This document shows, piece after piece, positions 53,486-64,000 of a DNA stretch of 64,000 bases. The DNA is taken from the NCBI GenBank assembly GCA_046052125.1, contig JBJOMY010000004.1, forward strand, positions 224,001-288,000, written 5' to 3'. A model generated the notes under the pieces. It searched no databases. It was not told the DNA's origin and saw only the letters and a list, made by a program, of their open reading frames with translations. The position numbers and the translations under genes are program-made. This DNA comes from Cyanobacteriota bacterium. Lineage in GTDB: Bacteria > Cyanobacteriota > Cyanobacteriia > PCC-6307 > Cyanobiaceae. Each line of letters opens with the position of its first letter. The stretch's first letter is position 1.

Positions 53486-53995
53486 TCACTCCGGGGAGCG
53501 CAAGTGCATCAGGGCCTGCAGGATCGCTTCGATGCTGCTGGCGTGGGCGGGCTTGTTGTTGTTCGCGATCAGCTGCCTGCCCACCACATGGGCGCCCAGG
53601 TGGGCTAGCTGGATTCTTAGGGCGGTGAGCACCTCATAACCACCGCTGCCCGAGTGGCTGGCCATGGCGATGGGACGGCCGTTGAACAGGGCTCTGAAGT
53701 CGTCTCCCAGCACGGACAGCCAGGCGAAGGCACTGGTGAGCACCGGTGGGATGGAGCCGTTGTATTCGGGTGCGCAGATGATCCAGCGCTGCCCCTGTTG
53801 CAGTCGAGCCTGCAGCGCCAGCAAGCCCTCAGGTTGACCGGCATCCCGGCGTCTCGGGGTGAATAGGGGTAGGTCCAGCTCGGTGAGATCGATCAGATCG
53901 ATGCTCAACCCCTGGGCTTTGGCTGCATCAGCGAACCGGTTGGCGAGGTTGAGGTTCTCCCCGTTGCTCGCCGCCACGATCAGGATGTCGTTCAT
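53486..53995 (-). CDS. NADPH-dependent FMN reductase
   Basis: DLPLF, APEYNGSIPPVL, FNGRP, SHSGSGG. Confidence 0.92.
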   Translation of the reverse strand: MNDILIVAASNGENLNLANRFADAAKAQGLSIDLIDLTELDLPLFTPRRRDAGQPEGLLALQARLQQGQRWIICAPEYNGSIPPVLTSAFAWLSVLGDDFRALFNGRPIAMASHSGSGGYEVLTALRIQLAHLGAHVVGRQLIANNNKPAHASSIEAILQALMHLRSPE

Positions 53996-54707
53996 GGGTG
54001 TGGATGGCAGGCCTCACCACGATCAAGCAACTCCTAGAGCTCTGCAAGCTGATTGACCTCAGAGGCATCTGCTCTCCGCCGATCGCGGTAGTCGCTGTGG
54101 ACGATGCAGTGGCTGTTTGATCCTGGAGAGCACATCACCAAGCGTTGCTCAACGCTAAGTAGTTTTGGTTGAAAACCAAGCACATTCGAGCGTTGTTGTT
54201 GATCGGCATTCTCTGGGTCGTTAGTCCATTGTTTTAGCCGTTGCGTTGTCCCCATGGACCTCTTTGTGTTCAGGGATTGCGGCTTGGTTGCTCTTTGTTC
54301 GCTTCCGTGGTCTATCGCAAGAGCTTTGGATGGGTATCCAAGCGTTGGGCGTTCAGTCATCGCTGGCCTGAGCAGGGGCTCTGCGCGGCTTTGGAGCTCC
54401 CGGCTCGGGGATTGTTTAAACGCTTTGGAGCTGGCTGCCGGGCCTGGCCATTGGGCCTTCTGAATATTTTCTTTATGAATCCGGCCTCGCGCTGCTCTTT
54501 GTCGGACATTTGTTTGTTGGTGCTAACCAGGTTCTGGTCAGTGTCGGCCTGTTTTGGCGAACACACCTGGCAGGTCTGCCGGGTGGCTTAGGCGTAAGTC
54601 GTCGATTGCTGTTTGCGGCTCTCTCGGTAGTTGGCAATTCATCACAGCTCCATGCGCATCCGAGCCGAGCTGGTCAAGCTGTGACAAGTGTTGTCTGGCC
54701 CATCCCC

Positions 54708-55205
54708 ATGCTTGAGCTGCTGCCGCCGCTCAACGACCACAACCTGCCTTGGATGGACACGATCCATCCCATCGTCGTTCACTTCGTGATCTCGATGGCG
54801 TTGATCGGCTTCGTCTTTGACGCGATCGGCGTTGTCTGGCGCAAGCCAGCCCTGTTCGAGGTGAGTTTCTGGAACCTGCTCTTCGCCACTGGCGCCATCT
54901 TTGTGGCGATCATCTTTGGTCAGGTTGAGGCTGGCTTGGCCGCCCCCTACGGAGCTGCCCGCAACATCCTCGACATTCACACCACGATCGGCTGGTCGCT
55001 AGCTGGGGTCCTATCCCTCCTCTCCGGTTGGCGTTACGTGCTGAGGAGCCGTGATCCTCAGATCCTGCCGGTCTCCTTCCTAGGGGCCGGGTCCGTGGTT
55101 AGCGCCTTGATCGTGGTTCAGGTGATCTTGGGCGACAAGCTCATTTGGACCTATGGCCTGCACACCGTGAAGGTGGTGGCTGCGATGCGGGAGGGCCTGA
55201 TCTGA
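54708..55205 (+). CDS. DUF2231-family membrane protein (copy 1)
   Basis: IHPIVVHFVI, four TM helices, further His in DIHT and YGLHT. Confidence 0.85.
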   Translation: MLELLPPLNDHNLPWMDTIHPIVVHFVISMALIGFVFDAIGVVWRKPALFEVSFWNLLFATGAIFVAIIFGQVEAGLAAPYGAARNILDIHTTIGWSLAGVLSLLSGWRYVLRSRDPQILPVSFLGAGSVVSALIVVQVILGDKLIWTYGLHTVKVVAAMREGLI

Positions 55206-55834
55206 TGCTTTTTGCCCTTGCTTACACGCCTGAAAAGGCGCCCATCGACCAGATCGCAGCTGGTCTTGGACCCAATGGCTTGCCCTACAGCCTGCCGATC
55301 CACCCCAACCTGGTGCACCTCACGATCGGCTTATTCGTGATTGCCATTGCCTTTGATGTGGTTGGAGCCCTCTATCCGTTGGAAAAGCGGGTGTTCCGCT
55401 TTTTGGCGCTCCCCATTACCCGCGGCGGTTTTCACGATGTGGGCTGGTACAACCTCCTGGCCTGTTGTCTGGTTTCCTTTTTCACCGTCGCGGCCGGTTT
55501 CTACGAAATGCTCACGGCCGTGCCCCTCCCTGGGGTGAAGAGCACGTTTGGTCTCGGTGGCATGACCACCATGCTTTGGCACGGCGTTGGCGGCGTGTTG
55601 GTGCTGGCGGTGATTGTCGGCATGACGGTTTGGCGTGGCTTCCAGCGCTTCTTTTGGAGGCGTGACATGGGTCGTCAGGTGCAGTGGCTGTATCTCGGTG
55701 TTGGGATCGTGATGTTTGCGGTCATTGGCCTGCACGGAACGCTTGGTGCCCAGCTCGCCGCTGAATTTGGTGTGCACATTGCTGCCGATCAGCTGCTTCA
55801 GGCCGGCGCTGACTTGCATACGGCTCTGCCCTGA
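55205..55834 (+). CDS. DUF2231-family membrane protein (copy 2)
   Basis: IHPNLVHLTIG, LWHG, GLHGTLGAQL, FGVH; TGATG overlap with copy 1. Confidence 0.85.
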   Translation: MLFALAYTPEKAPIDQIAAGLGPNGLPYSLPIHPNLVHLTIGLFVIAIAFDVVGALYPLEKRVFRFLALPITRGGFHDVGWYNLLACCLVSFFTVAAGFYEMLTAVPLPGVKSTFGLGGMTTMLWHGVGGVLVLAVIVGMTVWRGFQRFFWRRDMGRQVQWLYLGVGIVMFAVIGLHGTLGAQLAAEFGVHIAADQLLQAGADLHTALP

Positions 55835-55846
55835 GGAGATATCCCG

Positions 55847-56785
55847 ATGACGAGTTCCTCATCCCGTTCGATCAATGCGCCTGCGGTGGCAGGTGTCAGC
55901 CTCTGGGTCGGCCTAACTGTGGTGTTCAGCCACTGGATGGGCCAACAGGCTCACCGCTGGCTGCCGGTTCAAGCGTCAACCGCAGCCCCGTTGGTTGACG
56001 ACCTCTTCAGCTTTGAGACGTCCATCGGCACCTTTGTGTTTGTCGGTGTGGTGTCGGTGATGCTGTGGGTGATGTTGTTTAACCGCGCTGAGAAATACGA
56101 CGACAGCGACGCCGTGCCGATCGAGGGCAACACGCGCCTGGAGATCATCTGGACAGCGGTTCCCTTCGTGTTGGTGATGGCGATCGCCTTCTACACCATT
56201 CGAGCGACCAGCGAGCTCGGTGTCTTAGGCCCGATGGAGCACATCCACCCTCGCAACCAACAGGAGGAGCTAGGCGGCTACCCCGGCGATCGTCTGCCTG
56301 CTGAGCAGGTGGAAGTGATTGCACGCCAATGGTCCTGGGAGTTTCGCTATCCCGATGGCAACGTCTCCTCCACGGAGCTCCATCTGGCGGTTGATCAACC
56401 AGTGACGTTCCGTCTGGTTTCAGAGGACGTGTTGCACGGCTTCTACATTCCGGCCTTCCGAATCAAGCAGGATGTGATTCCTGGTCGCGCGATCGATCTC
56501 AACATCACCCCCACACGCGAGGGTGTCTATCGCTTGCGTGACTCCCAGTTCAGCGGCACCTGGTTTGCTGCCAACCAGGCCGATGTGGTGGTGGAGAGCG
56601 ATGAGGTGCATCGTGCCTGGCTTGAGCAGGCTGCGCGAGCTCCCCTGCAGCCAGGGTTGACGCTCGCTGTCTCTGAATACGCCACCCGTCAGGCCCGGCC
56701 AAATCCAGGTTGGGCGACTGTGCCGCCTGCTCCGCCCCCTCAGGTGAATGTGCCTGGTTCCCCCGATCAACCCCACGACGCCTGA
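55847..56785 (+). CDS. ctaC: Heme-copper oxidase subunit II, ARTO type (no CuA)
   Basis: GNTRLEIIWT, QWSWEFRY, DVLHGFYIP, DVIPG; CxExCGxxHxxM replaced by DSQFSGTWFAAN; GAGGAG RBS. Confidence 0.93.
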   Translation: MTSSSSRSINAPAVAGVSLWVGLTVVFSHWMGQQAHRWLPVQASTAAPLVDDLFSFETSIGTFVFVGVVSVMLWVMLFNRAEKYDDSDAVPIEGNTRLEIIWTAVPFVLVMAIAFYTIRATSELGVLGPMEHIHPRNQQEELGGYPGDRLPAEQVEVIARQWSWEFRYPDGNVSSTELHLAVDQPVTFRLVSEDVLHGFYIPAFRIKQDVIPGRAIDLNITPTREGVYRLRDSQFSGTWFAANQADVVVESDEVHRAWLEQAARAPLQPGLTLAVSEYATRQARPNPGWATVPPAPPPQVNVPGSPDQPHDA

Positions 56786-58461
56786 TGACCATCGCCACCT
56801 TCCCACCTGATCCCAAGCCGGAACCCGGCTGGAGCCGTTACTTCGGCTTCTGCACCGATGCCAAGGTGATTGGCATTCAGTACATCGTGACCGCCTTTTT
56901 CTTCTTTTTGATTGGCGGCTTGCTGGCGATGGTGATCCGCGGAGAGCTGATCACGCCGGAATCAGATCTGGTTGACCGTGCTGTGTACAACGGCATCTAC
57001 ACGATGCACGGAACAATCATGTTGTTCCTGTTCATCTTCCCGGTGCTCAATGGGCTCAACAATCTGTTGATTCCCACCATGATCGGTGCGCCCGACATGG
57101 CTTTCCCCCGCCTAAACGCGGTGGCTTTCTGGCTGGTTCCCATCTTCGGCTTCCTGTTGATGGCCAGTTTTCTCGTGCCAGGTGGACCGGCGTATTCAGG
57201 ATGGTGGAGCTATCCGCCCGTGAGTATCCAGAACCCTGTGGGCCATCTCCTCAACGGTCAGGGTTTGTGGATTACGGCCGTCGCTCTATCGGGCGTGTCG
57301 TCGATCATGGGTGCGATCAATTTCGTCACCACGATCCTGCGGATGCGGGCTCCGGGGATGACGATCACCCGCATGCCTGTCTACTGCTGGACTGCTCTTG
57401 CGGCCCAGTCGTTGCAGCTGATCGGCCTGCCAGCTCTCACGGGTGGAGCGATCATGCTCCTGATGGACTTGAGCTTTGGCACCAGCTTCTATCGACCTGA
57501 AGGTGGTGGTGATCCAGTCCTTTATCAGCACTTCTTCTGGTTCTATTCGCATCCGGCGGTCTATGTGATCATCCTGCCGGTCTTTGGAATCTTCTCTGAG
57601 CTTTTTCCGGTCTATTCCCGTAAGCCCCTCTTTGGCTACCTGTATGTGGCTCTGGCCTCGTTCATCATCGTTGGCCTGGGCTTGATCGTGTGGGTTCACC
57701 ACATGTTCCCCAGTGGTGTTGCTCAGTGGATGCGCAATTTGTTCATGGTCACCACCATGCTGATCGCCGTTCCCACTGGCGTGAAGGTGTTTGCCTGGCT
57801 TGGCACGCTCTGGGGAGGCAAGATCCGGCTCACCACGCCGATGTTGTTCAGTCTTGGTGGGCTGTTCAACTTCGTTTTTGCTGGCATCACCGGTGTGATG
57901 CTGGCAACTGTCCCGGTCGACATTCACGTGTCGAACACCTACTTCGTGGTTGGTCACTTCCACTACGTGATCTACGGCGCCGCTGTGATGGGGATCTTCG
58001 CTGCGATTTACCACTGGTTCCCCAAGTTCACTGGTCGGATGCCCTACGAGGGCCTGGGCAAGCTCCACTGCCTGCTCACCTTTGTGGGTGCAAACCTCAA
58101 CTTCCTGCCCATGCACCCTTTGGGGCTGATGGGCATGCCTAGGCGAGTCTCCAGCTACGACCCTGAGTTCACCTTCTGGAATGTGATCGCCAGCCTGGGA
58201 GCGTTCCTGCTTGGGGTTTCGATCATTCCTTTCCTGCTCAATATGGTGAGTTCCTGGATCCGTGGTCCTAAAGCCACCCACAACCCGTGGAATGCCATCG
58301 GTCTTGAATGGCTGTTGCCGTCACCGCCGCCGGAAGACAACTTCGGTGAGGAGGTGCCCACGGTGATTAGTCGCCCCTATGGCTACGGCACCGGTGAGCC
58401 TTTGGTGGAACACCAGGCCGAGATTGAGCGTCGCCTTGAACTGCAGGAGGCTGCGGCATGA
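56785..58461 (+). CDS. ctaD: Heme-copper oxidase subunit I (ARTO)
   Basis: TMHGTIM, DMAFPRLN, FWFYSHPAVY, WVHHMF, HFHYV, GMPRR; all six His ligands present. Confidence 0.97.
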   Translation: MTIATFPPDPKPEPGWSRYFGFCTDAKVIGIQYIVTAFFFFLIGGLLAMVIRGELITPESDLVDRAVYNGIYTMHGTIMLFLFIFPVLNGLNNLLIPTMIGAPDMAFPRLNAVAFWLVPIFGFLLMASFLVPGGPAYSGWWSYPPVSIQNPVGHLLNGQGLWITAVALSGVSSIMGAINFVTTILRMRAPGMTITRMPVYCWTALAAQSLQLIGLPALTGGAIMLLMDLSFGTSFYRPEGGGDPVLYQHFFWFYSHPAVYVIILPVFGIFSELFPVYSRKPLFGYLYVALASFIIVGLGLIVWVHHMFPSGVAQWMRNLFMVTTMLIAVPTGVKVFAWLGTLWGGKIRLTTPMLFSLGGLFNFVFAGITGVMLATVPVDIHVSNTYFVVGHFHYVIYGAAVMGIFAAIYHWFPKFTGRMPYEGLGKLHCLLTFVGANLNFLPMHPLGLMGMPRRVSSYDPEFTFWNVIASLGAFLLGVSIIPFLLNMVSSWIRGPKATHNPWNAIGLEWLLPSPPPEDNFGEEVPTVISRPYGYGTGEPLVEHQAEIERRLELQEAAA

Positions 58462-59042
58462 CCAGCACCACACTCTCGCAAGAAGGCCAGCATGAGGCCC
58501 ATCTCAAGCACAACCTCACAGGGTTCATCATCTTCCTGTGCTCGGAAAGTGTGATTTTTCTGGCCTTCTTCAGTGGCTATGCCCTGTTGAAGACCAGTGC
58601 TCTTAATTGGTTGCCCGCCGGTGTGGATGGTCTGGAGTGGCGCACCCCGCTGGTGAACACCGTGGTGTTGGTGTCGAGTTCAGGCACCATTGCGCTGGCG
58701 GAGCACTTCAAGGGCCGGGAGAACATGGCCTTGTTCCGCGGCTTCTGGCTGCTCAGCATGGCGATGGGCGCTTACTTCCTCTATGGCCAGGCCGTGGAGT
58801 GGAGCGGGCTGAAGTTCGGCTTCACCTCGGGCACCTTCGGCGGCACCTTCTATCTCCTCACAGGATTCCACGGATTGCACGTTGCCACCGGCATCCTGTT
58901 GATGGGTTTGATGTTGATCAAATCCTTCATCCCTGGCAATTACAGCGGCGGTGAACAGGGTGTTCAGGCCACATCTTTGTTCTGGCACTTCGTGGATGTG
59001 ATTTGGATCATCCTCTTCTTGCTGATTTACGTGTGGCAGTAA
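58458..59042 (+). CDS. ctaE: Heme-copper oxidase subunit III (ARTO)
   Basis: FLCSE, NTVVLVSSS, TGFHGLHV, FWHFVDVIW. Confidence 0.96.
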   Translation: MTSTTLSQEGQHEAHLKHNLTGFIIFLCSESVIFLAFFSGYALLKTSALNWLPAGVDGLEWRTPLVNTVVLVSSSGTIALAEHFKGRENMALFRGFWLLSMAMGAYFLYGQAVEWSGLKFGFTSGTFGGTFYLLTGFHGLHVATGILLMGLMLIKSFIPGNYSGGEQGVQATSLFWHFVDVIWIILFLLIYVWQ

Positions 59043-59055
59043 ACGGAGCTGAATC

Positions 59056-60570
59056 ATGATTATCGACGACAACCATTACAACGTGATCGTGATCGGCAGT
59101 GGTGCCGGTGGAGGAACCCTCGCCGGTCAACTGGCCCGCTCCGGCAAAACCGTTCTGCTGTTGGAGCGTGGTGGCCAACTGCCCCTCGTTGATCAGAACG
59201 TTGCTGATGTGGATCTGTTTCGCAAAGACCGCTATCACCCCGGTGAGCAATGGTTTGGGACAGACGGCGATCCCTTCTCTCCTCAGACGGTGTATGCCCT
59301 AGGCGGCAACACCAAGATCTGGGGCGGTGTGCTCGAGCGGATGCGCGAGCGTGAGTTCAGCGGTCTGCCTCTGCAGGACGGACCTTCTCCCGGTTGGGAA
59401 ATCAGCTATGGCGATCTAGCGCCTTACTACGAGCGGGCCGAAACGCTTTACCGCGTGCATGGCAAGGCCGGTCTGGATCCCACCGAGCCCGCCCGCACCG
59501 CTGGCTATGCCCATGGCCCGAAGCCAATCGAGCCGTTCATGCAGGAACTGCGCAGCAGCCTGCAGCGGCAAGGACTCCATCCCTACGACCTGCCGATCAG
59601 TTGGTCGGACTCCCAGGTGGATCCCAGTGGAGATGCCGAGCTTTTTGGTGTTGAGTTGGCCCGGCAGGACTCCAACATTTGTGTGCGCGAACGTGCTCGA
59701 GTGCGTCGGCTGCATGTGAATCCGAGCGGCACGGAAGTGCGTGGTGTGGAGGCCGAAATCGATGGCAACCAGTGGTTGTTCACCGGTGATGTTGTTGTGC
59801 TGGCAGCCGGCGCGATCAACACCGCTGAACTTCTACTGCGTTCCGCCACTGAACATCACAGCCGCGGTTTGTCGAATGGATCGGATCAGGTGGGCCGCAA
59901 CCTGATGAAGCCGCAGCTCACCTCCGTGATTCAGCTGGCCGCCGAACCCAATTCCGGCCGCTACGGCCGAAGCCTCGGTATCACCGATTTCTACTGGGGC
60001 GATCAGAACGTGAATTTCCCGCTGGGTTCGGTGGCCACAGGTGGTGGCGTGCTGCAGGACGCTCTCTTTGCCGAGTCGCCGCCGGTGTTGTCACTGGTGA
60101 CCAAGCTGATGCCCAGTTTTGGTCTTGAGCAACTGGCCGCACGCTCGGTGGCCTGGTGGGCCATGAGTGCGGTGCGGCCTGACCCCCACAACCGCGTGAC
60201 CCTGCGAGGTAACCACCTGCAGATCCACTACCTGCCGAACAACCGTGAGGCCCACGACCGCTTGGTGTACCGCTGGATCGACACCCTGAAGCAGGTGGAG
60301 AACGATCCCGAGTGCCATGTGGTGAAGCCTGCTCCCACCCACCCGCGGGGAGAAGCACCGCTCACGGTGATGGGCAGCGTTTGCGGGACCTGCCGGATGG
60401 GCTCCAATCCGGCCACATCGGTTGTTGATCTTCAGGGTCGCAGTCACGAGCTCAGCAATCTGTTCATCGCCGATGCGAGCATCTTTCCGAGTTGTCCTGC
60501 CGTTGGTTTTGGGCTCACGGTGATCGCCAATGCCCTTCGCATTGCTGATCGCGTGTTGGAGGTTCTGTGA
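59056..60570 (+). CDS. GMC-family flavoprotein, atypical (catalytic His and Cys motif not seen)
   Basis: IGSGAGGG, LERG, GGNTK, LAAGA, GTCRMG, DASIFP. Confidence 0.9.
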   Translation: MIIDDNHYNVIVIGSGAGGGTLAGQLARSGKTVLLLERGGQLPLVDQNVADVDLFRKDRYHPGEQWFGTDGDPFSPQTVYALGGNTKIWGGVLERMREREFSGLPLQDGPSPGWEISYGDLAPYYERAETLYRVHGKAGLDPTEPARTAGYAHGPKPIEPFMQELRSSLQRQGLHPYDLPISWSDSQVDPSGDAELFGVELARQDSNICVRERARVRRLHVNPSGTEVRGVEAEIDGNQWLFTGDVVVLAAGAINTAELLLRSATEHHSRGLSNGSDQVGRNLMKPQLTSVIQLAAEPNSGRYGRSLGITDFYWGDQNVNFPLGSVATGGGVLQDALFAESPPVLSLVTKLMPSFGLEQLAARSVAWWAMSAVRPDPHNRVTLRGNHLQIHYLPNNREAHDRLVYRWIDTLKQVENDPECHVVKPAPTHPRGEAPLTVMGSVCGTCRMGSNPATSVVDLQGRSHELSNLFIADASIFPSCPAVGFGLTVIANALRIADRVLEVL

Positions 60571-63257
60571 TGGTTCTCTCCAGCTCCCTCCCGGGTGGTT
60601 CGGAACATCGCCGCATGGCGGAGCGGGATCACGAGCACGTTCCTTGGAATCGTTGGGGGAGTTACCTGCCTGAACGCCAGTGGGGAACGGTCCGCGAGGA
60701 CTACTCCGCCGATGGCAACGCCTGGGCCTCATTTCCCCACGACCATGCCCGCTCGCGTGTGTACCGCTGGGGTGAGGACGGATTGCTCGGCATCTGTGAT
60801 GACCAGTGCCGCTTGTGTTTTTCCGTTGCTCTCTGGAACGGTGAGGACGCCATCCTCAAGGAGCGACCGTTCGGCCTTGCCAACGAAGAGGGCAACCACG
60901 GCGAAGACATCAAGGACTACTACTTCCACCTCGCCAATACGCCCACCCATAGCTTTATGCGGGGCTTGTACAAGTACCCGCAGCAGCGCTTCCCCTACCA
61001 GGAGCTGATCGACGAGAACCGGCGCCGGGGACGCGAGCAGCCCGAGTACGAGCTGGTGGATACGGGCATCTTTAACCAGAGCCGCTACTTCGATGTGTTC
61101 ATCGAATATGCCAAGGCTTCTCCTGATGACATCGCCATCCGGGTCCGGGCGATTAATCGCGGCCCCGACCCTGCGCCGCTCACCCTGCTGCCCACCCTAT
61201 GGCTGCGGAACACCTGGAGCTGGGGCTATCCCGATGAGCACGCACAACCGATGCGCCTCGATGGCGACAGCGTGCTGGCTTCAGTGGGCGGAGGTTTAGG
61301 TGACTACCGCTTGCATGCGGCAGGTGGCGGTGAGTGGATCTTCACCGATAACGAAACCAATACGGAGCGTCTTTACCAGGAGCCCAACCAGAAATCCTTC
61401 CAGAAAGACGGCTTTCACCGCTATCTCTGTGACGGCGAATCAACAGCGATTAACCCGGCCCAGCAGGGCACCAAAGTGGCTCGCCTGTTGCAACGCACCC
61501 TGCAACCCGGCGAGGAATGGCAGGTGGAGCTGCGGCTCGTGGGGCCGGAGAGTTCCCCTCCGCCACAACCTTTCGGTGCTGAGTTTGAAGCGCTCTTTCG
61601 AGAAAGGGAACAGGAATGGCACGACTTTTTTGAAACCATCGTCCCCAACCTCTCTGAGGACGACCGTCTGATCCACACCACTGGGTTAGCCGGTTTGCTC
61701 TGGTGCAAGAAGTATTACGGCTGGAGTGTGCTGCGCTGGCTCGATGGCGATCCCAACGCACCCACACCACCGAGCCAGCGCTGGCATACCCAGAACGCGG
61801 CCTGGCAGCGCTTGCATGCCCATGATGTGATTTCCATGCCCGATGCATGGGAGTACCCCTATTTCTGCCAGTGGGACCTGATGTTCCATGCGGTGGCGTT
61901 CGCGATTGTTGATCCCGCCACGGCTAAGGAGCAATGCATGTTGCTGCGTTCGCCGCATTACACCGCACCGAATGCGCAGACGCCTGCCTATGAGTGGGCC
62001 CTCTCCGATCCCAATCCACCCATCGGTGCCTGGGCAGCGATGCGTGTGTTTCAGATTGAGCGAAAAGCCACCGAAGAGCCTGATCTCGGCTTCCTTCGCG
62101 CCGCCTTGCGCAAGCTGATCCTTGAATACGGCTGGTGGGCCAACCGCAATGACCGCTCCGGCGACAATGTGTTTGAGGGTGGCTTCCTCGGGCTCGACAA
62201 TATTGCTGTCTTCGATCGGCGTTTCCCTCTTGCTGACGGCAGTCGGATTGAGCAGTGCGATGGCACGGCCTGGATGGCATCGCTCAGCCTCAACCTGCTC
62301 AATATCAGTGTTGAGCTGAGCCGGGAGGAGCCTGAGTATGCCGATATTTGTGAACGCTTCGTTTACGACTTTGTTCAACTCGCTCTCACGCTGAATACGG
62401 CGGGGAATCGCGGCTATGTGAACTGGGACGAGGAGGACGGCTTCTATTACGACGTGATCAAGCGTCCCGACGGCAGCAGCACTTACTTGCGCTCGCGTTC
62501 GGTGTCGGGCTTGGTGCCGTTGCTTGCGGTGGCCAGTTTTGATGTGGATACGGTGAAACGGTTGCCGGTGTTGAATGTCTCCGAGAGCTTGAAGTGGTTC
62601 CTGCACGAGCGCACAAAGCCTGCCTGGCTGATCCACAACTTTGGTCAATGGCGCAACGACCGGCTGCTGTTCTCCCTGGTTCCTGAGGATCGCCTGCGCC
62701 GCATCTGTGAGCGCTTGTTTGATGAGGATGAGTTCCTCTCACCCTATGGCATTCGTGCACTCTCCAAGGTGTACGCCGACCACCCCTACACCTTTACCGA
62801 GGGGAGTGATAGTCAGACCCTGGCCTATAGCCCAGCCGATAGCCCGGTGCCGATGTTCGGTGGTAATTCCAACTGGCGAGGACCGGTGTGGATGCCGATC
62901 AATCACCTGTTGATCGAAGCGCTGCAGAAATTCGGCCACTACTACGGCGATACCTTCCAGGTGGAGTTCCCGACCCGTTCCGGGAACTGGGTGAACCTCT
63001 GGGATGCCTCACTGCTGCTTGAACATCGGCTGGCCAACATCTTCCGCCGCGATGAACAGGGTCGTCGCCCGTTCAACGGTGAGGTTGAACTGTTCCAGAA
63101 CGATCCCCATTGGCGTGATCTGATTCTGTTCAATGAGTATTTCCACGGTGATAACGGATCCGGTGTGGGTGCTAGTCATCAAACCGGTTGGACCGCCATG
63201 GTTTGCAAGATGATCAATCAGTTGAGCCGCTATTCCACTCCGTCCCAAGGCTCATGA
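60567..63257 (+). CDS. MGH1-like / GH63-type glycoside hydrolase (glucosidase), start uncertain
   Basis: ERQWGTVREDYS, GNHGED, MPDAWEYP, YEW, GFLGLDN, NSNWRGPVW, FNEYFHGD, ASHQTGWT. Confidence 0.9.
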   Translation: MMVLSSSLPGGSEHRRMAERDHEHVPWNRWGSYLPERQWGTVREDYSADGNAWASFPHDHARSRVYRWGEDGLLGICDDQCRLCFSVALWNGEDAILKERPFGLANEEGNHGEDIKDYYFHLANTPTHSFMRGLYKYPQQRFPYQELIDENRRRGREQPEYELVDTGIFNQSRYFDVFIEYAKASPDDIAIRVRAINRGPDPAPLTLLPTLWLRNTWSWGYPDEHAQPMRLDGDSVLASVGGGLGDYRLHAAGGGEWIFTDNETNTERLYQEPNQKSFQKDGFHRYLCDGESTAINPAQQGTKVARLLQRTLQPGEEWQVELRLVGPESSPPPQPFGAEFEALFREREQEWHDFFETIVPNLSEDDRLIHTTGLAGLLWCKKYYGWSVLRWLDGDPNAPTPPSQRWHTQNAAWQRLHAHDVISMPDAWEYPYFCQWDLMFHAVAFAIVDPATAKEQCMLLRSPHYTAPNAQTPAYEWALSDPNPPIGAWAAMRVFQIERKATEEPDLGFLRAALRKLILEYGWWANRNDRSGDNVFEGGFLGLDNIAVFDRRFPLADGSRIEQCDGTAWMASLSLNLLNISVELSREEPEYADICERFVYDFVQLALTLNTAGNRGYVNWDEEDGFYYDVIKRPDGSSTYLRSRSVSGLVPLLAVASFDVDTVKRLPVLNVSESLKWFLHERTKPAWLIHNFGQWRNDRLLFSLVPEDRLRRICERLFDEDEFLSPYGIRALSKVYADHPYTFTEGSDSQTLAYSPADSPVPMFGGNSNWRGPVWMPINHLLIEALQKFGHYYGDTFQVEFPTRSGNWVNLWDASLLLEHRLANIFRRDEQGRRPFNGEVELFQNDPHWRDLILFNEYFHGDNGSGVGASHQTGWTAMVCKMINQLSRYSTPSQGS

Positions 63258-63288
63258 CAATTGGGCGACAACCGCCTTAATTGTTTCT
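63258..63288 (+). terminator. Possible weak terminator/processing hairpin between glucosidase and second GMC
   Basis: CAATTGGGCG-ACAAC-CGCCTTAATTG then TTTCT. Confidence 0.35.
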
Positions 63289-63314
63289 AGCTTGCGGGTA
63301 CTGACGGTATCCCT

Positions 63315-64000
63315 GTGGACCTACTCCAGTCTCTCGGTCAGCTGCAGAAGCCCGAGGCCACCCATTTCGATGTGTTGATCATCGGCAGTGGTGCGGGCGG
63401 TGGAACGTTGGCCCGTGTGCTGGCACCAACTGGGTTGAGAATCCTCATCCTGGAGCGCGGCGACTGGCTCCCACAGGAAGCGCAGAACTGGGATGCGGAT
63501 GCCGTGTTCCAGAAGGGCCGTTATCTCTCCAAGGACATCTGGTACGACGGCAAGGGGAATCCATTTCAGCCCGGCACCCACTACTTCGTTGGTGGTGCCA
63601 CAAAGATGTATGGCGCCCACCACTTCCGCCTCAGGCAGCGCGATTTTGAGGAGCTGGAGCACCACGATGGTGTTTCGCCGGCTTGGCCTCTGCGCTACAG
63701 CGATTTTGAGCCTTGGTATCAACAAGCCGAAGCCATGTATCACGTGCATGGCCTGCGTGGCGAGGACCCAACAGATCCGCCCAGCTCATCGCCTTATCCC
63801 CACCCGCCGATCTCTCACGAGCCTCGGATTCAGAAGCTGGCTGATGATCTGCGCAGTGCCGGGTTGCACCCGTTCCATGCACCCAGTGGGGTGATGCTCG
63901 ATGAAAGCAACATGCCCTACAGCCGTTGCCGGCGTTGTAACAACTGCGATGGATTCCCTTGTCTGGTGCACGCCAAGGGGGATGCGGAGGTGTGCGGCGT
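63315..64000 (+). CDS. Second GMC-family oxidoreductase, 3'-truncated by window edge (not in ORF track)
   Basis: GTG start; HFDVLIIGSGAGGG, LERG, VGGATKMYG, CRRCNNCDGFPC; frame open to 64000. Confidence 0.92.
   Translation, partial: MDLLQSLGQLQKPEATHFDVLIIGSGAGGGTLARVLAPTGLRILILERGDWLPQEAQNWDADAVFQKGRYLSKDIWYDGKGNPFQPGTHYFVGGATKMYGAHHFRLRQRDFEELEHHDGVSPAWPLRYSDFEPWYQQAEAMYHVHGLRGEDPTDPPSSSPYPHPPISHEPRIQKLADDLRSAGLHPFHAPSGVMLDESNMPYSRCRRCNNCDGFPCLVHAKGDAEVCG

Follow-up and report, generated by a model that had tools for sequence, protein, structure and literature searches.

The present study concerns a respiratory oxidase gene cluster at the end of a 64,000-nucleotide stretch of cyanobacterial DNA. 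This stretch, hereafter the window, comprises positions 224001 to 288000 of contig C4 (JBJOMY010000004.1) in a genome of 2.64 Mb and about 65% G+C from the family Cyanobiaceae (hereafter, the family). Eight plus-strand genes with near-touching ends run from position 54708 to 913 bases beyond the window end. Two genes for DUF2231 membrane proteins open the array, namely duf1 (54708-55205; 165 aa; Pfam PF09990, E 4e-32) and duf2 (55205-55834; 209 aa; PF09990, E 7e-36). They are followed by three genes for subunits of ARTO (alternative respiratory terminal oxidase): ctaC (55847-56785; subunit II, CtaCII; Pfam COX2 and COX2_TM), which has no CuA site, ctaD (56785-58461; the full-length heme-copper oxidase subunit I, CtaDII; COX1, E 1e-152), and ctaE (58458-59042; subunit III, CtaEII; COX3, E 4.5e-30). 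Downstream, gmc1 (59056-60570; Pfam GMC_oxred_N and GMC_oxred_C) encodes a GMC-fold protein with a flavin adenine dinucleotide (FAD) motif, and gh63 (60567-63257; 896 aa) encodes a GH63-like glycoside hydrolase (Pfam MGH1-like_GH, E 8.7e-19; Glyco_hydro_63, E 6.6e-8). The last gene, gmc2, encodes a second GMC protein (GMC2, 532 aa; Pfam GMC) at window-equivalent positions 63315-64913 (L001:11315-12913), of which 63315-64000 lie inside the window. Beyond gmc2 the array ends, and the strand flips to minus with DoxX, VOC/glyoxalase, and HbpS-like genes.

The genes are tightly packed. The duf1 stop and duf2 start overlap as TGATG at 55203, the same pentanucleotide joins ctaC to ctaD at 56783, and ctaD and ctaE overlap as ATGA at 58458, while gaps of 12, 13, and 57 nt separate duf2 from ctaC, ctaE from gmc1, and gh63 from gmc2, respectively. 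An earlier note on this DNA had listed the same junctions within an array of eight overlapping or nearly touching same-strand genes that runs off the window. All these features were reproduced, the eight genes are real and belong to the families named there, and the sequence past 64000 carries the remainder of gmc2. One more junction, absent from that list, is the 4-nt overlap of the gmc1 stop with the GTG start of gh63 (60567-60570).

Judged from its sequence, the core of the locus encodes the cyanobacterial ARTO as an operon; this heme-copper oxidase without CuA is taken to oxidise plastoquinol. The genome also holds a separate canonical ctaCDE on contig C5, whose ctaD is 54% identical to the ARTO ctaD. 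The canonical CtaC carries the CuA motif H...CAELCGPYHGGM; at the aligned place the ARTO CtaC reads DSQFSGTWFAAN, so that the Cys, Cys, His, and Met ligands are all replaced. Furthermore, the motif CxExCxxxHxxM occurred in none of the 102 ARTO CtaC orthologues, in agreement with the earlier description of the oxidase as lacking CuA. Cytochrome c oxidase models gave the oxidase subunits higher scores than Cyo or Qox models did, and the NCBIfam CyoA/B/C models matched them at sub-threshold scores only. Among 101 family genomes that are at least 90% complete, the ctaD matches split into two groups, with at least 75% and at most 57% identity. A copy of the former group is present in 56 genomes, and one more genome has an ARTO copy cut by a contig end; hence 57 of the 101 were counted as ARTO-bearing and 44 as without ARTO. 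The ARTO ctaD matched in two pieces in Synechococcus sp. RCC307 (L075) and in L093, and it has one in-frame TGA in three genomes (G031, G211, and G071).

The six genes duf1-duf2-ctaC-ctaD-ctaE-gmc1 constitute what we call module A. This core is complete and in order in all 54 ARTO loci fetched from the family. Outside the family, where an identity of at least 66% defined ARTO-type ctaD, the gene was found in 79 of 184 genomes, and the arrangement in these 79 was read from fetched loci combined with gene coordinates. A GMC1 orthologue lies directly 3′ of ctaE in 62 of them (37 seen in loci and 25 by coordinates), and in four others a GMC that has kept a Cys loop occupies the place after ctaE. 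In single genomes gmc1 lies about 5 kb off on the opposite strand or on a different contig, contig breaks hide its state in two, and no GMC is found nearby in nine, eight of which belong to one family. The full co-linear core was present in 37 of the 40 other-family gmc1 loci, and one more is co-linear as far as the contig end that truncates it. Of these 40 loci, fetched from the gmc1 side, 38 have the DUF2231 pair ahead of ctaC, all but a lone gmc1 and a contig cut; among loci fetched from the ctaD side the pair is there in 13/13. Module A is the cyanobacteria-wide ARTO operon. The DUF2231 pair, which had been proposed to mark ARTO together with ctaCDE, is thus present in every fetched ARTO locus for which upstream DNA was available. 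The linkage of GMC genes to ARTO, which the earlier note had set beforehand as a test of its proposal, is strong and wide (54/54 family loci and 62/79 other-family genomes). Our literature searches yielded no paper linking a GMC gene to ARTO, and a search for 'DUF2231' returned nothing beyond unrelated work.

The remaining two genes behave differently from this core. We call gh63-gmc2 module B; DoxX and VOC genes in convergent orientation usually belong to it. In the host, these encode a DoxX membrane protein and a two-domain protein of VOC/glyoxalase fold (334 aa) and lie on the minus strand just beyond the window end (L001:12941-14508), convergent to gmc2. The gh63-gmc2 pair follows gmc1 in 26 of the 54 family ARTO loci sampled from the ctaD side, and DoxX is present in 18 of these 26 fused loci. 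In 39/39 loci gmc1 and gh63 adjoin, with a median spacing of -4 nt and never more than 47 nt between them. Within the genus of the host, 12/12 GH63 orthologues lie in the cluster, three of these loci being cut by contig ends, and Synechococcus sp. RCC307 carries all eight genes. GMC2 orthologues occur in 35 of the 101 family genomes, all of them among the 57 ARTO carriers; the 44 genomes without ARTO have no GMC2 orthologue. In 29 of the 35, module B lies in the ARTO locus, in five it lies elsewhere in the genome, and in one it lies about 8 kb upstream of duf1. In the six relocated cases gh63 is still 5′ of gmc2, and DoxX and VOC follow wherever sequence exists (5/5). Since these genes relocate together, the mobile unit is GH63-GMC2 with DoxX and VOC. 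Its fusion to the ARTO operon was probably one ancestral event, followed by later losses and moves. Module B is a family-specific, relocatable add-on found only in ARTO-bearing genomes of the family, and what had been claimed as a single new respiratory module is instead a known oxidase operon joined by such an add-on.

The GMC protein of the core retains the flavin-binding signature and has lost most of its catalytic signature. The FAD motif GxGxxG lies at residues 14-19 of GMC1, with G14, G16, and G19 invariant and E37 at least 95% conserved; altogether 131 residues are at least 95% conserved. The Cys loop is deleted in all 107 sequences. At the catalytic-His position Tyr (38), His (18), and Asn (17) are commonest, Ser being found in the host genome, and at the catalytic-Asn position Gly (60) and Ser (43) are commonest, with Asn in none of the 107. 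GMC1 thus departs from the canonical His/Asn catalytic pair of active GMC oxidoreductases. Beside the former catalytic-His site, residues 443-446 form a conserved CGTC (CxxC) motif, which may be a redox-active dithiol adjoining the flavin; several Cys-loop relatives read HQCGTC. The best solved relatives of GMC1 are the large subunits of FAD glucose dehydrogenase (FAD-GDH) and fructose dehydrogenase (FDH), with an E value of 1.1e-23, GMC1 and GMC2 are 38% identical, and a protein atlas search with GMC1 returned generic GMC clusters only. Because it is without the Cys loop and the catalytic Asn, and mostly without the His, GMC1 probably does not act as a common sugar dehydrogenase; a role within ARTO, as a flavin-binding accessory subunit or one for electron transfer, is more likely.

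How GMC1 might have reached this state is suggested by the four ARTO-adjacent GMCs with a Cys loop (L116-L119), in which Asn replaces the His and Ser replaces the Asn. By these residues they are intermediates. In a maximum-likelihood GMC tree the Cys-loop proteins form one clade with support of 100/100, and L116-L119 lie at its base, adjoining GMC1. The root of this tree is not usable, as the outgroup branch measures 9.9 changes per column. From this topology we infer that a competent enzyme would have lost its His/Asn pair before the loop, an order that fits the tree.

The two DUF2231 proteins each have four invariant His residues, at positions 20, 25, 91, and 152 in protein 1 (30 orthologues) and at positions 33, 38, 126, and 191 in protein 2 (orthologue alignment). 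Going by the positive-inside rule, this His cluster is predicted to lie on the membrane's outer face, as does the CuA-less CtaC domain. An AlphaFold2 model of duf2 shows four long helices with a mean pLDDT (predicted local distance difference test) of 74. A Foldseek search of this model against the PDB returned nothing at E ≤ 0.001, and VIA-align wide returned generic four-helix bundles only, with a top Z of 13.1 that is in the usual range for helical bundles. Complex prediction for duf1, duf2, and GMC1 together gave a score of 0.02 against a mark of 0.32, which counts neither way.

GMC2, on the other hand, has the features of a Cys-loop dehydrogenase. Its Cys motif reads CRRCNNCDGFPC, and the CxxCxxCxxxxC loop, the FAD motif (GxGxxG at residues 24-29), and the catalytic His/Asn pair are invariant in 42/42 sequences. 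One in-frame TGA interrupts gmc2 in G123 and G106, both of one genus. The best solved relative is the Fe-S-bearing FAD-GDH catalytic subunit (E 3.6e-30). When the GMC2 loop is set against the solved Fe-S loop, the four invariant Cys fall at the aligned place, two of them aligning exactly, although the spacing differs. The earlier note had described both GMCs as Cys-motif flavoproteins; this applies to GMC2, whereas in GMC1 the loop is deleted. The kinship it drew between such proteins and Fe-S sugar oxidisers is supported at the level of alignment, the closest matches of GMC2 being the catalytic subunits of the FAD-dependent glucose and fructose dehydrogenases. GMC1, GMC2, and GH63 each start at the first possible start codon, so that a signal peptide is impossible for all three. 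This position, together with FAD motifs so near the N termini of both GMCs, bears out the view that neither GMC has an export signal. The chemistry is thus predicted to be cytoplasmic unless a partner carries the proteins out.

GH63 itself is, on the same sequence grounds, a cytoplasmic protein. It scores 68.7 bits with PF22422 (cut-off 27) and 32.2 bits with PF03200 (cut-off 22.4), and its N-terminal part of about 400 residues has no Pfam match. The motifs WRGPxWxxINYL and E-x-Y...TGWT are conserved and align by profile to glucosidase I of the endoplasmic reticulum (ER; 4j5t). Residues D565 and E857 within these motifs are invariant in 32 sequences. They are the presumed catalytic positions. 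A second GH63 paralogue, 45% identical, lies outside the window in the host genome (C4:3528-6167), and some related genomes have a second GH63 copy directly 3′ of gmc2 (L048, L050-L052, and L073). Homologues about 50% identical are common in cyanobacteria. Among eight GH63 loci from other families, three have a GMC2-like gene within the 20-kb stretch. One GH63 locus elsewhere adjoins glucokinase, glucose-6-phosphate dehydrogenase, and a glucose-dehydrogenase-like gene, and another adjoins a MIP channel. A literature search on GH63, cyanobacteria, and glucosylglycerate returned nothing on the GH63 protein of this locus.

A second class of CuA-less oxidase clusters provides a further comparison. 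Its ctaD is 60-66% identical to that of the locus, and 11 such loci were found in several families. DUF2231 genes were matched in nine of the 11, and in six a His/Asn-intact GMC lies within 8 kb, upstream or downstream and in varied arrangements. DoxX is also present in four of these six loci, and four of the six GMCs are missing any Cys cluster. DoxX and VOC also recur near GMC genes beside other oxidase clusters. Clusters for CuA-less oxidases thus repeatedly have a GMC flavoprotein of this clade as a neighbour, in more than one arrangement, and among the comparative evidence this speaks most strongly for a functional tie. The second-class clusters (L126 and L217-L226) sometimes share a genome with the first class, and the one in L126 adjoins a UbiA-type prenyltransferase, an NDH-2-like gene, and channel genes of the MIP and MscS types.

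Parts of the stretch turn up in 24 public sequencing runs, of which 18 are recorded as RNA; the habitats listed are without exception freshwater, lake or river. Four freshwater RNA libraries, from four studies, yielded contigs that cover the cluster and bridge duf2-ctaC-ctaD, ctaD/ctaE, gmc1/gh63, and gh63/gmc2, although strand, ends, and a single transcript are not readable from such contigs. One of them crosses from gmc2 into the convergent DoxX gene.

Upstream of the operon lie minus-strand FMN reductase and NdhL genes. The genes divergent from it, at 53486-54360 of the window, are an NADPH-dependent FMN reductase gene and a 108-aa open reading frame (ORF) without a family match, which leaves about 350 nt before duf1 for an operon promoter. 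A promoter scan found no sigma-70-like sites, the region upstream of the operon included, and the NtcA site GTAN8TAC had no match in the window. Terminator-like sites from the scan lay inside genes and were not used, and antisense ORFs of up to 331 aa inside the eight genes had no Pfam match. Beyond the VOC gene, still on the minus strand, come an HbpS-like gene (haem-degrading-like) and an ORF that encodes a Nif11-type leader domain of ribosomally synthesized and post-translationally modified peptides (L001:14512-15439). The HbpS-like gene occurs in 12 of 66 family loci. An NCBIfam search of DoxX, VOC, and their neighbours gave no specific family.

How could these parts work together? Starting from the observed gene identities, motif states, synteny, and co-occurrence, and assigning by inference the substrates, cofactors, electron path, and physical association, we tentatively favour the following route, to which we grant somewhat less than an even chance. 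An ARTO operon with its DUF2231 pair and GMC1 would receive electrons from the GH63/GMC2 add-on, running from a glycoside through sugar oxidation and quinone to ARTO and oxygen. In this route, GH63 would split a cytoplasmic alpha-glucoside, possibly a compatible solute, and GMC2 would oxidise the released sugar or the aglycone. From GMC2 the electrons would move through a putative Fe-S cluster, and perhaps DoxX, into the membrane's quinone pool, and ARTO, made from the same transcript, would reoxidise the quinol with oxygen. The sugar-related neighbours of GH63 elsewhere and the RNA-library contigs across gmc1/gh63 and gh63/gmc2 also count in favour of this route. A stronger version, which we consider doubtful, is that ARTO is no three-subunit quinol oxidase but a larger complex in which the DUF2231 pair and the GMC-fold flavoprotein form a hitherto unrecognised electron-entry module; in picocyanobacteria, GH63/GMC2/DoxX would plug in there and, as a short dedicated chain, connect a cytoplasmic glycoside, such as a compatible solute, straight to oxygen.

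Several observations weigh against the favoured route. The GMC that is ever-present, GMC1, is the one without the catalytic Asn and mostly without the His, and nine of the 79 other-family ARTO genomes have no GMC nearby. GMC2 keeps its four Cys in a spacing unlike that of the solved 3Fe-4S loop. FAD-GDH and FDH enzymes work with a small subunit bearing a twin-arginine translocation (Tat) signal and a multi-heme cytochrome c subunit; genes for neither subunit were found in the 20 kb around the locus. The linkage of GH63 to ARTO put forward earlier holds within the family but fails outside it, as none of the eight other-family GH63 loci has ARTO genes, and GH63 neighbourhoods in five further families are mixed, with no common theme. 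The earlier note had electrons pass via membrane carriers or quinone. As acceptor, DoxX, which accompanies GMC2, is a candidate of a more direct kind than the DUF2231 proteins, a guess from co-location. The counts of linkage within the family come from kin that are not independent, and small streamlined genomes there are without both modules. Finally, the RNA-library contigs may include carried-over DNA and are no proof of a single transcript.

A first alternative, which we hold to be somewhat unlikely, is that the units are autonomous and no more than co-transcribed. GH63-GMC2-DoxX-VOC would then serve catabolism or detoxification on its own, delivering electrons to quinone at large or to another acceptor, and would have no special relation to ARTO, with the fusion giving shared regulation at most. 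Such independence agrees with the absence of module B from 28 of the 54 family ARTO loci and with the six unfused cases among 35 genomes, where module B is intact away from the operon in five and about 8 kb upstream in one; both counts also weigh against the favoured route. Likewise, GMC2-like and VOC genes are paired in two other-family loci (L019 and L020) with no ARTO nearby. Against this alternative, GMC2 was found in 35 of the 57 family genomes with ARTO and in 0/44 without it, and the fused state, with overlapping stop and start codons, holds in 29 of the 35. Furthermore, GMC and DoxX recur beside the second oxidase class, in other families and in different arrangements.

A second alternative, rather unlikely in our estimate, is that ARTO contains GMC1 and the DUF2231 pair as integral subunits through which electrons enter. 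The GMC fold would serve as a flavin or CxxC relay, and GMC2 would dock there and not act via free quinone. The near-universal co-linearity of these genes with ctaCDE speaks for this, as do the 131 conserved GMC1 residues that persist though the catalytic ones were lost, the CGTC motif at the former active site, the four invariant His of each DUF2231 protein, and the intermediate ARTO-adjacent GMCs that have a Cys loop but no His/Asn pair. Yet GMC1 is predicted to be cytoplasmic while the DUF2231 His cluster is placed by the positive-inside rule on the outer side, the structural searches gave the DUF2231 proteins no cofactor-bearing relative, and nine of the 79 other-family ARTO genomes have no GMC nearby. 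As a third alternative, GMC1 could have no redox role and aid assembly or stability, or it could be a pseudo-enzyme in decay, with the add-on acting on a non-sugar substrate unrelated to respiration. The loss of the catalytic Asn in 107/107 and of the His in 89/107 GMC1 sequences, a VOC-fold partner without assigned chemistry, and the mixed GH63 neighbours elsewhere would suit such a view. We nevertheless find it highly improbable, given the strong purifying conservation of GMC1 class-wide, FAD motif included, the retention of every catalytic hallmark in GMC2, and the intact signature motifs of GH63.

ARTO is the least understood of the cyanobacterial terminal oxidases. The published accounts, in the portions accessible to us, present a presumed quinol oxidase of three subunits, for which neither dedicated partners nor a substrate pathway are named. 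Our analysis offers candidates for such partners: a flavoprotein gene that most of the sampled cyanobacteria have 3′ of ctaE, two membrane proteins rich in His and always encoded 5′ of ctaC, and a hydrolase-dehydrogenase pair of freshwater and marine picocyanobacteria that occurs only in ARTO genomes. If the link of this pair to ARTO is functional, abundant aquatic phototrophs would have a cytoplasm-to-oxygen route for the disposal of a sugar or osmolyte. What feeds ARTO would then become testable in named strains with the cluster, e.g., Synechococcus sp. RCC307.

The layout of the core matches that of the type-1 ARTO cox3/Qox of Anabaena sp. PCC 7120, in which two small genes precede a CuA-less subunit II and subunits I and III; the operon is given as alr2729-alr2730-coxB3-coxA3-coxC3 in the accessible parts of the reports (PMC6616624; also PMC3898017). 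As far as those parts go, the published operon ends at coxC3 and no flavoprotein is named, whereas our locus continues with GMC1, GH63, and GMC2. Thus, the two upstream genes were already known, and the flavoprotein is not part of that description. We liken alr2729/alr2730 to the DUF2231 pair by gene position alone. In Synechocystis sp. PCC 6803, the ARTO genes are presumably split over two loci. The Synechocystis enzyme (ctaCII, sll0813; ctaDII-ctaEII) is described, in the available portions of the sources, as located in the plasma membrane and CuA-less, the latter as at our locus (PMC7796093, PMC13331136).

Among solved structures, the best relatives of both GMCs are the catalytic subunits of two enzymes, Burkholderia cepacia FAD glucose dehydrogenase (6a2u, 8hdd) and Gluconobacter fructose dehydrogenase (7w2j). 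GMC2 shares with them a Cys-rich loop at the aligned place as well as the His and Asn, and GMC1 is without both. The Cys spacing of GMC2 is CxxCxxCxxxxC, as against CCxxxxCxxxC in FAD-GDH/FDH. The solved kin of GH63 are ER glucosidase I (4j5t) and Thermus TTHA0978 (2z07/4wva), and glucosylglycerate and mannosylglycerate hydrolases are also related; MGH1-like and GH63 C-terminal domains are common to them. The GH63 protein of the locus, at about 900 aa, has weak similarity to the solved members (E 2.5e-7 with a profile). The quinol oxidase cytochrome bo3 of Escherichia coli is likewise a heme-copper enzyme whose subunit II has lost CuA. Unlike cytochrome bo3, our locus has no CyoD-like gene and has DUF2231 and GMC partners instead. 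Taken against these systems, the ARTO oxidase operon is the known part of the locus, and the further parts are the flavoprotein partner gene, which we did not find described in the literature searched, and the family-specific add-on.

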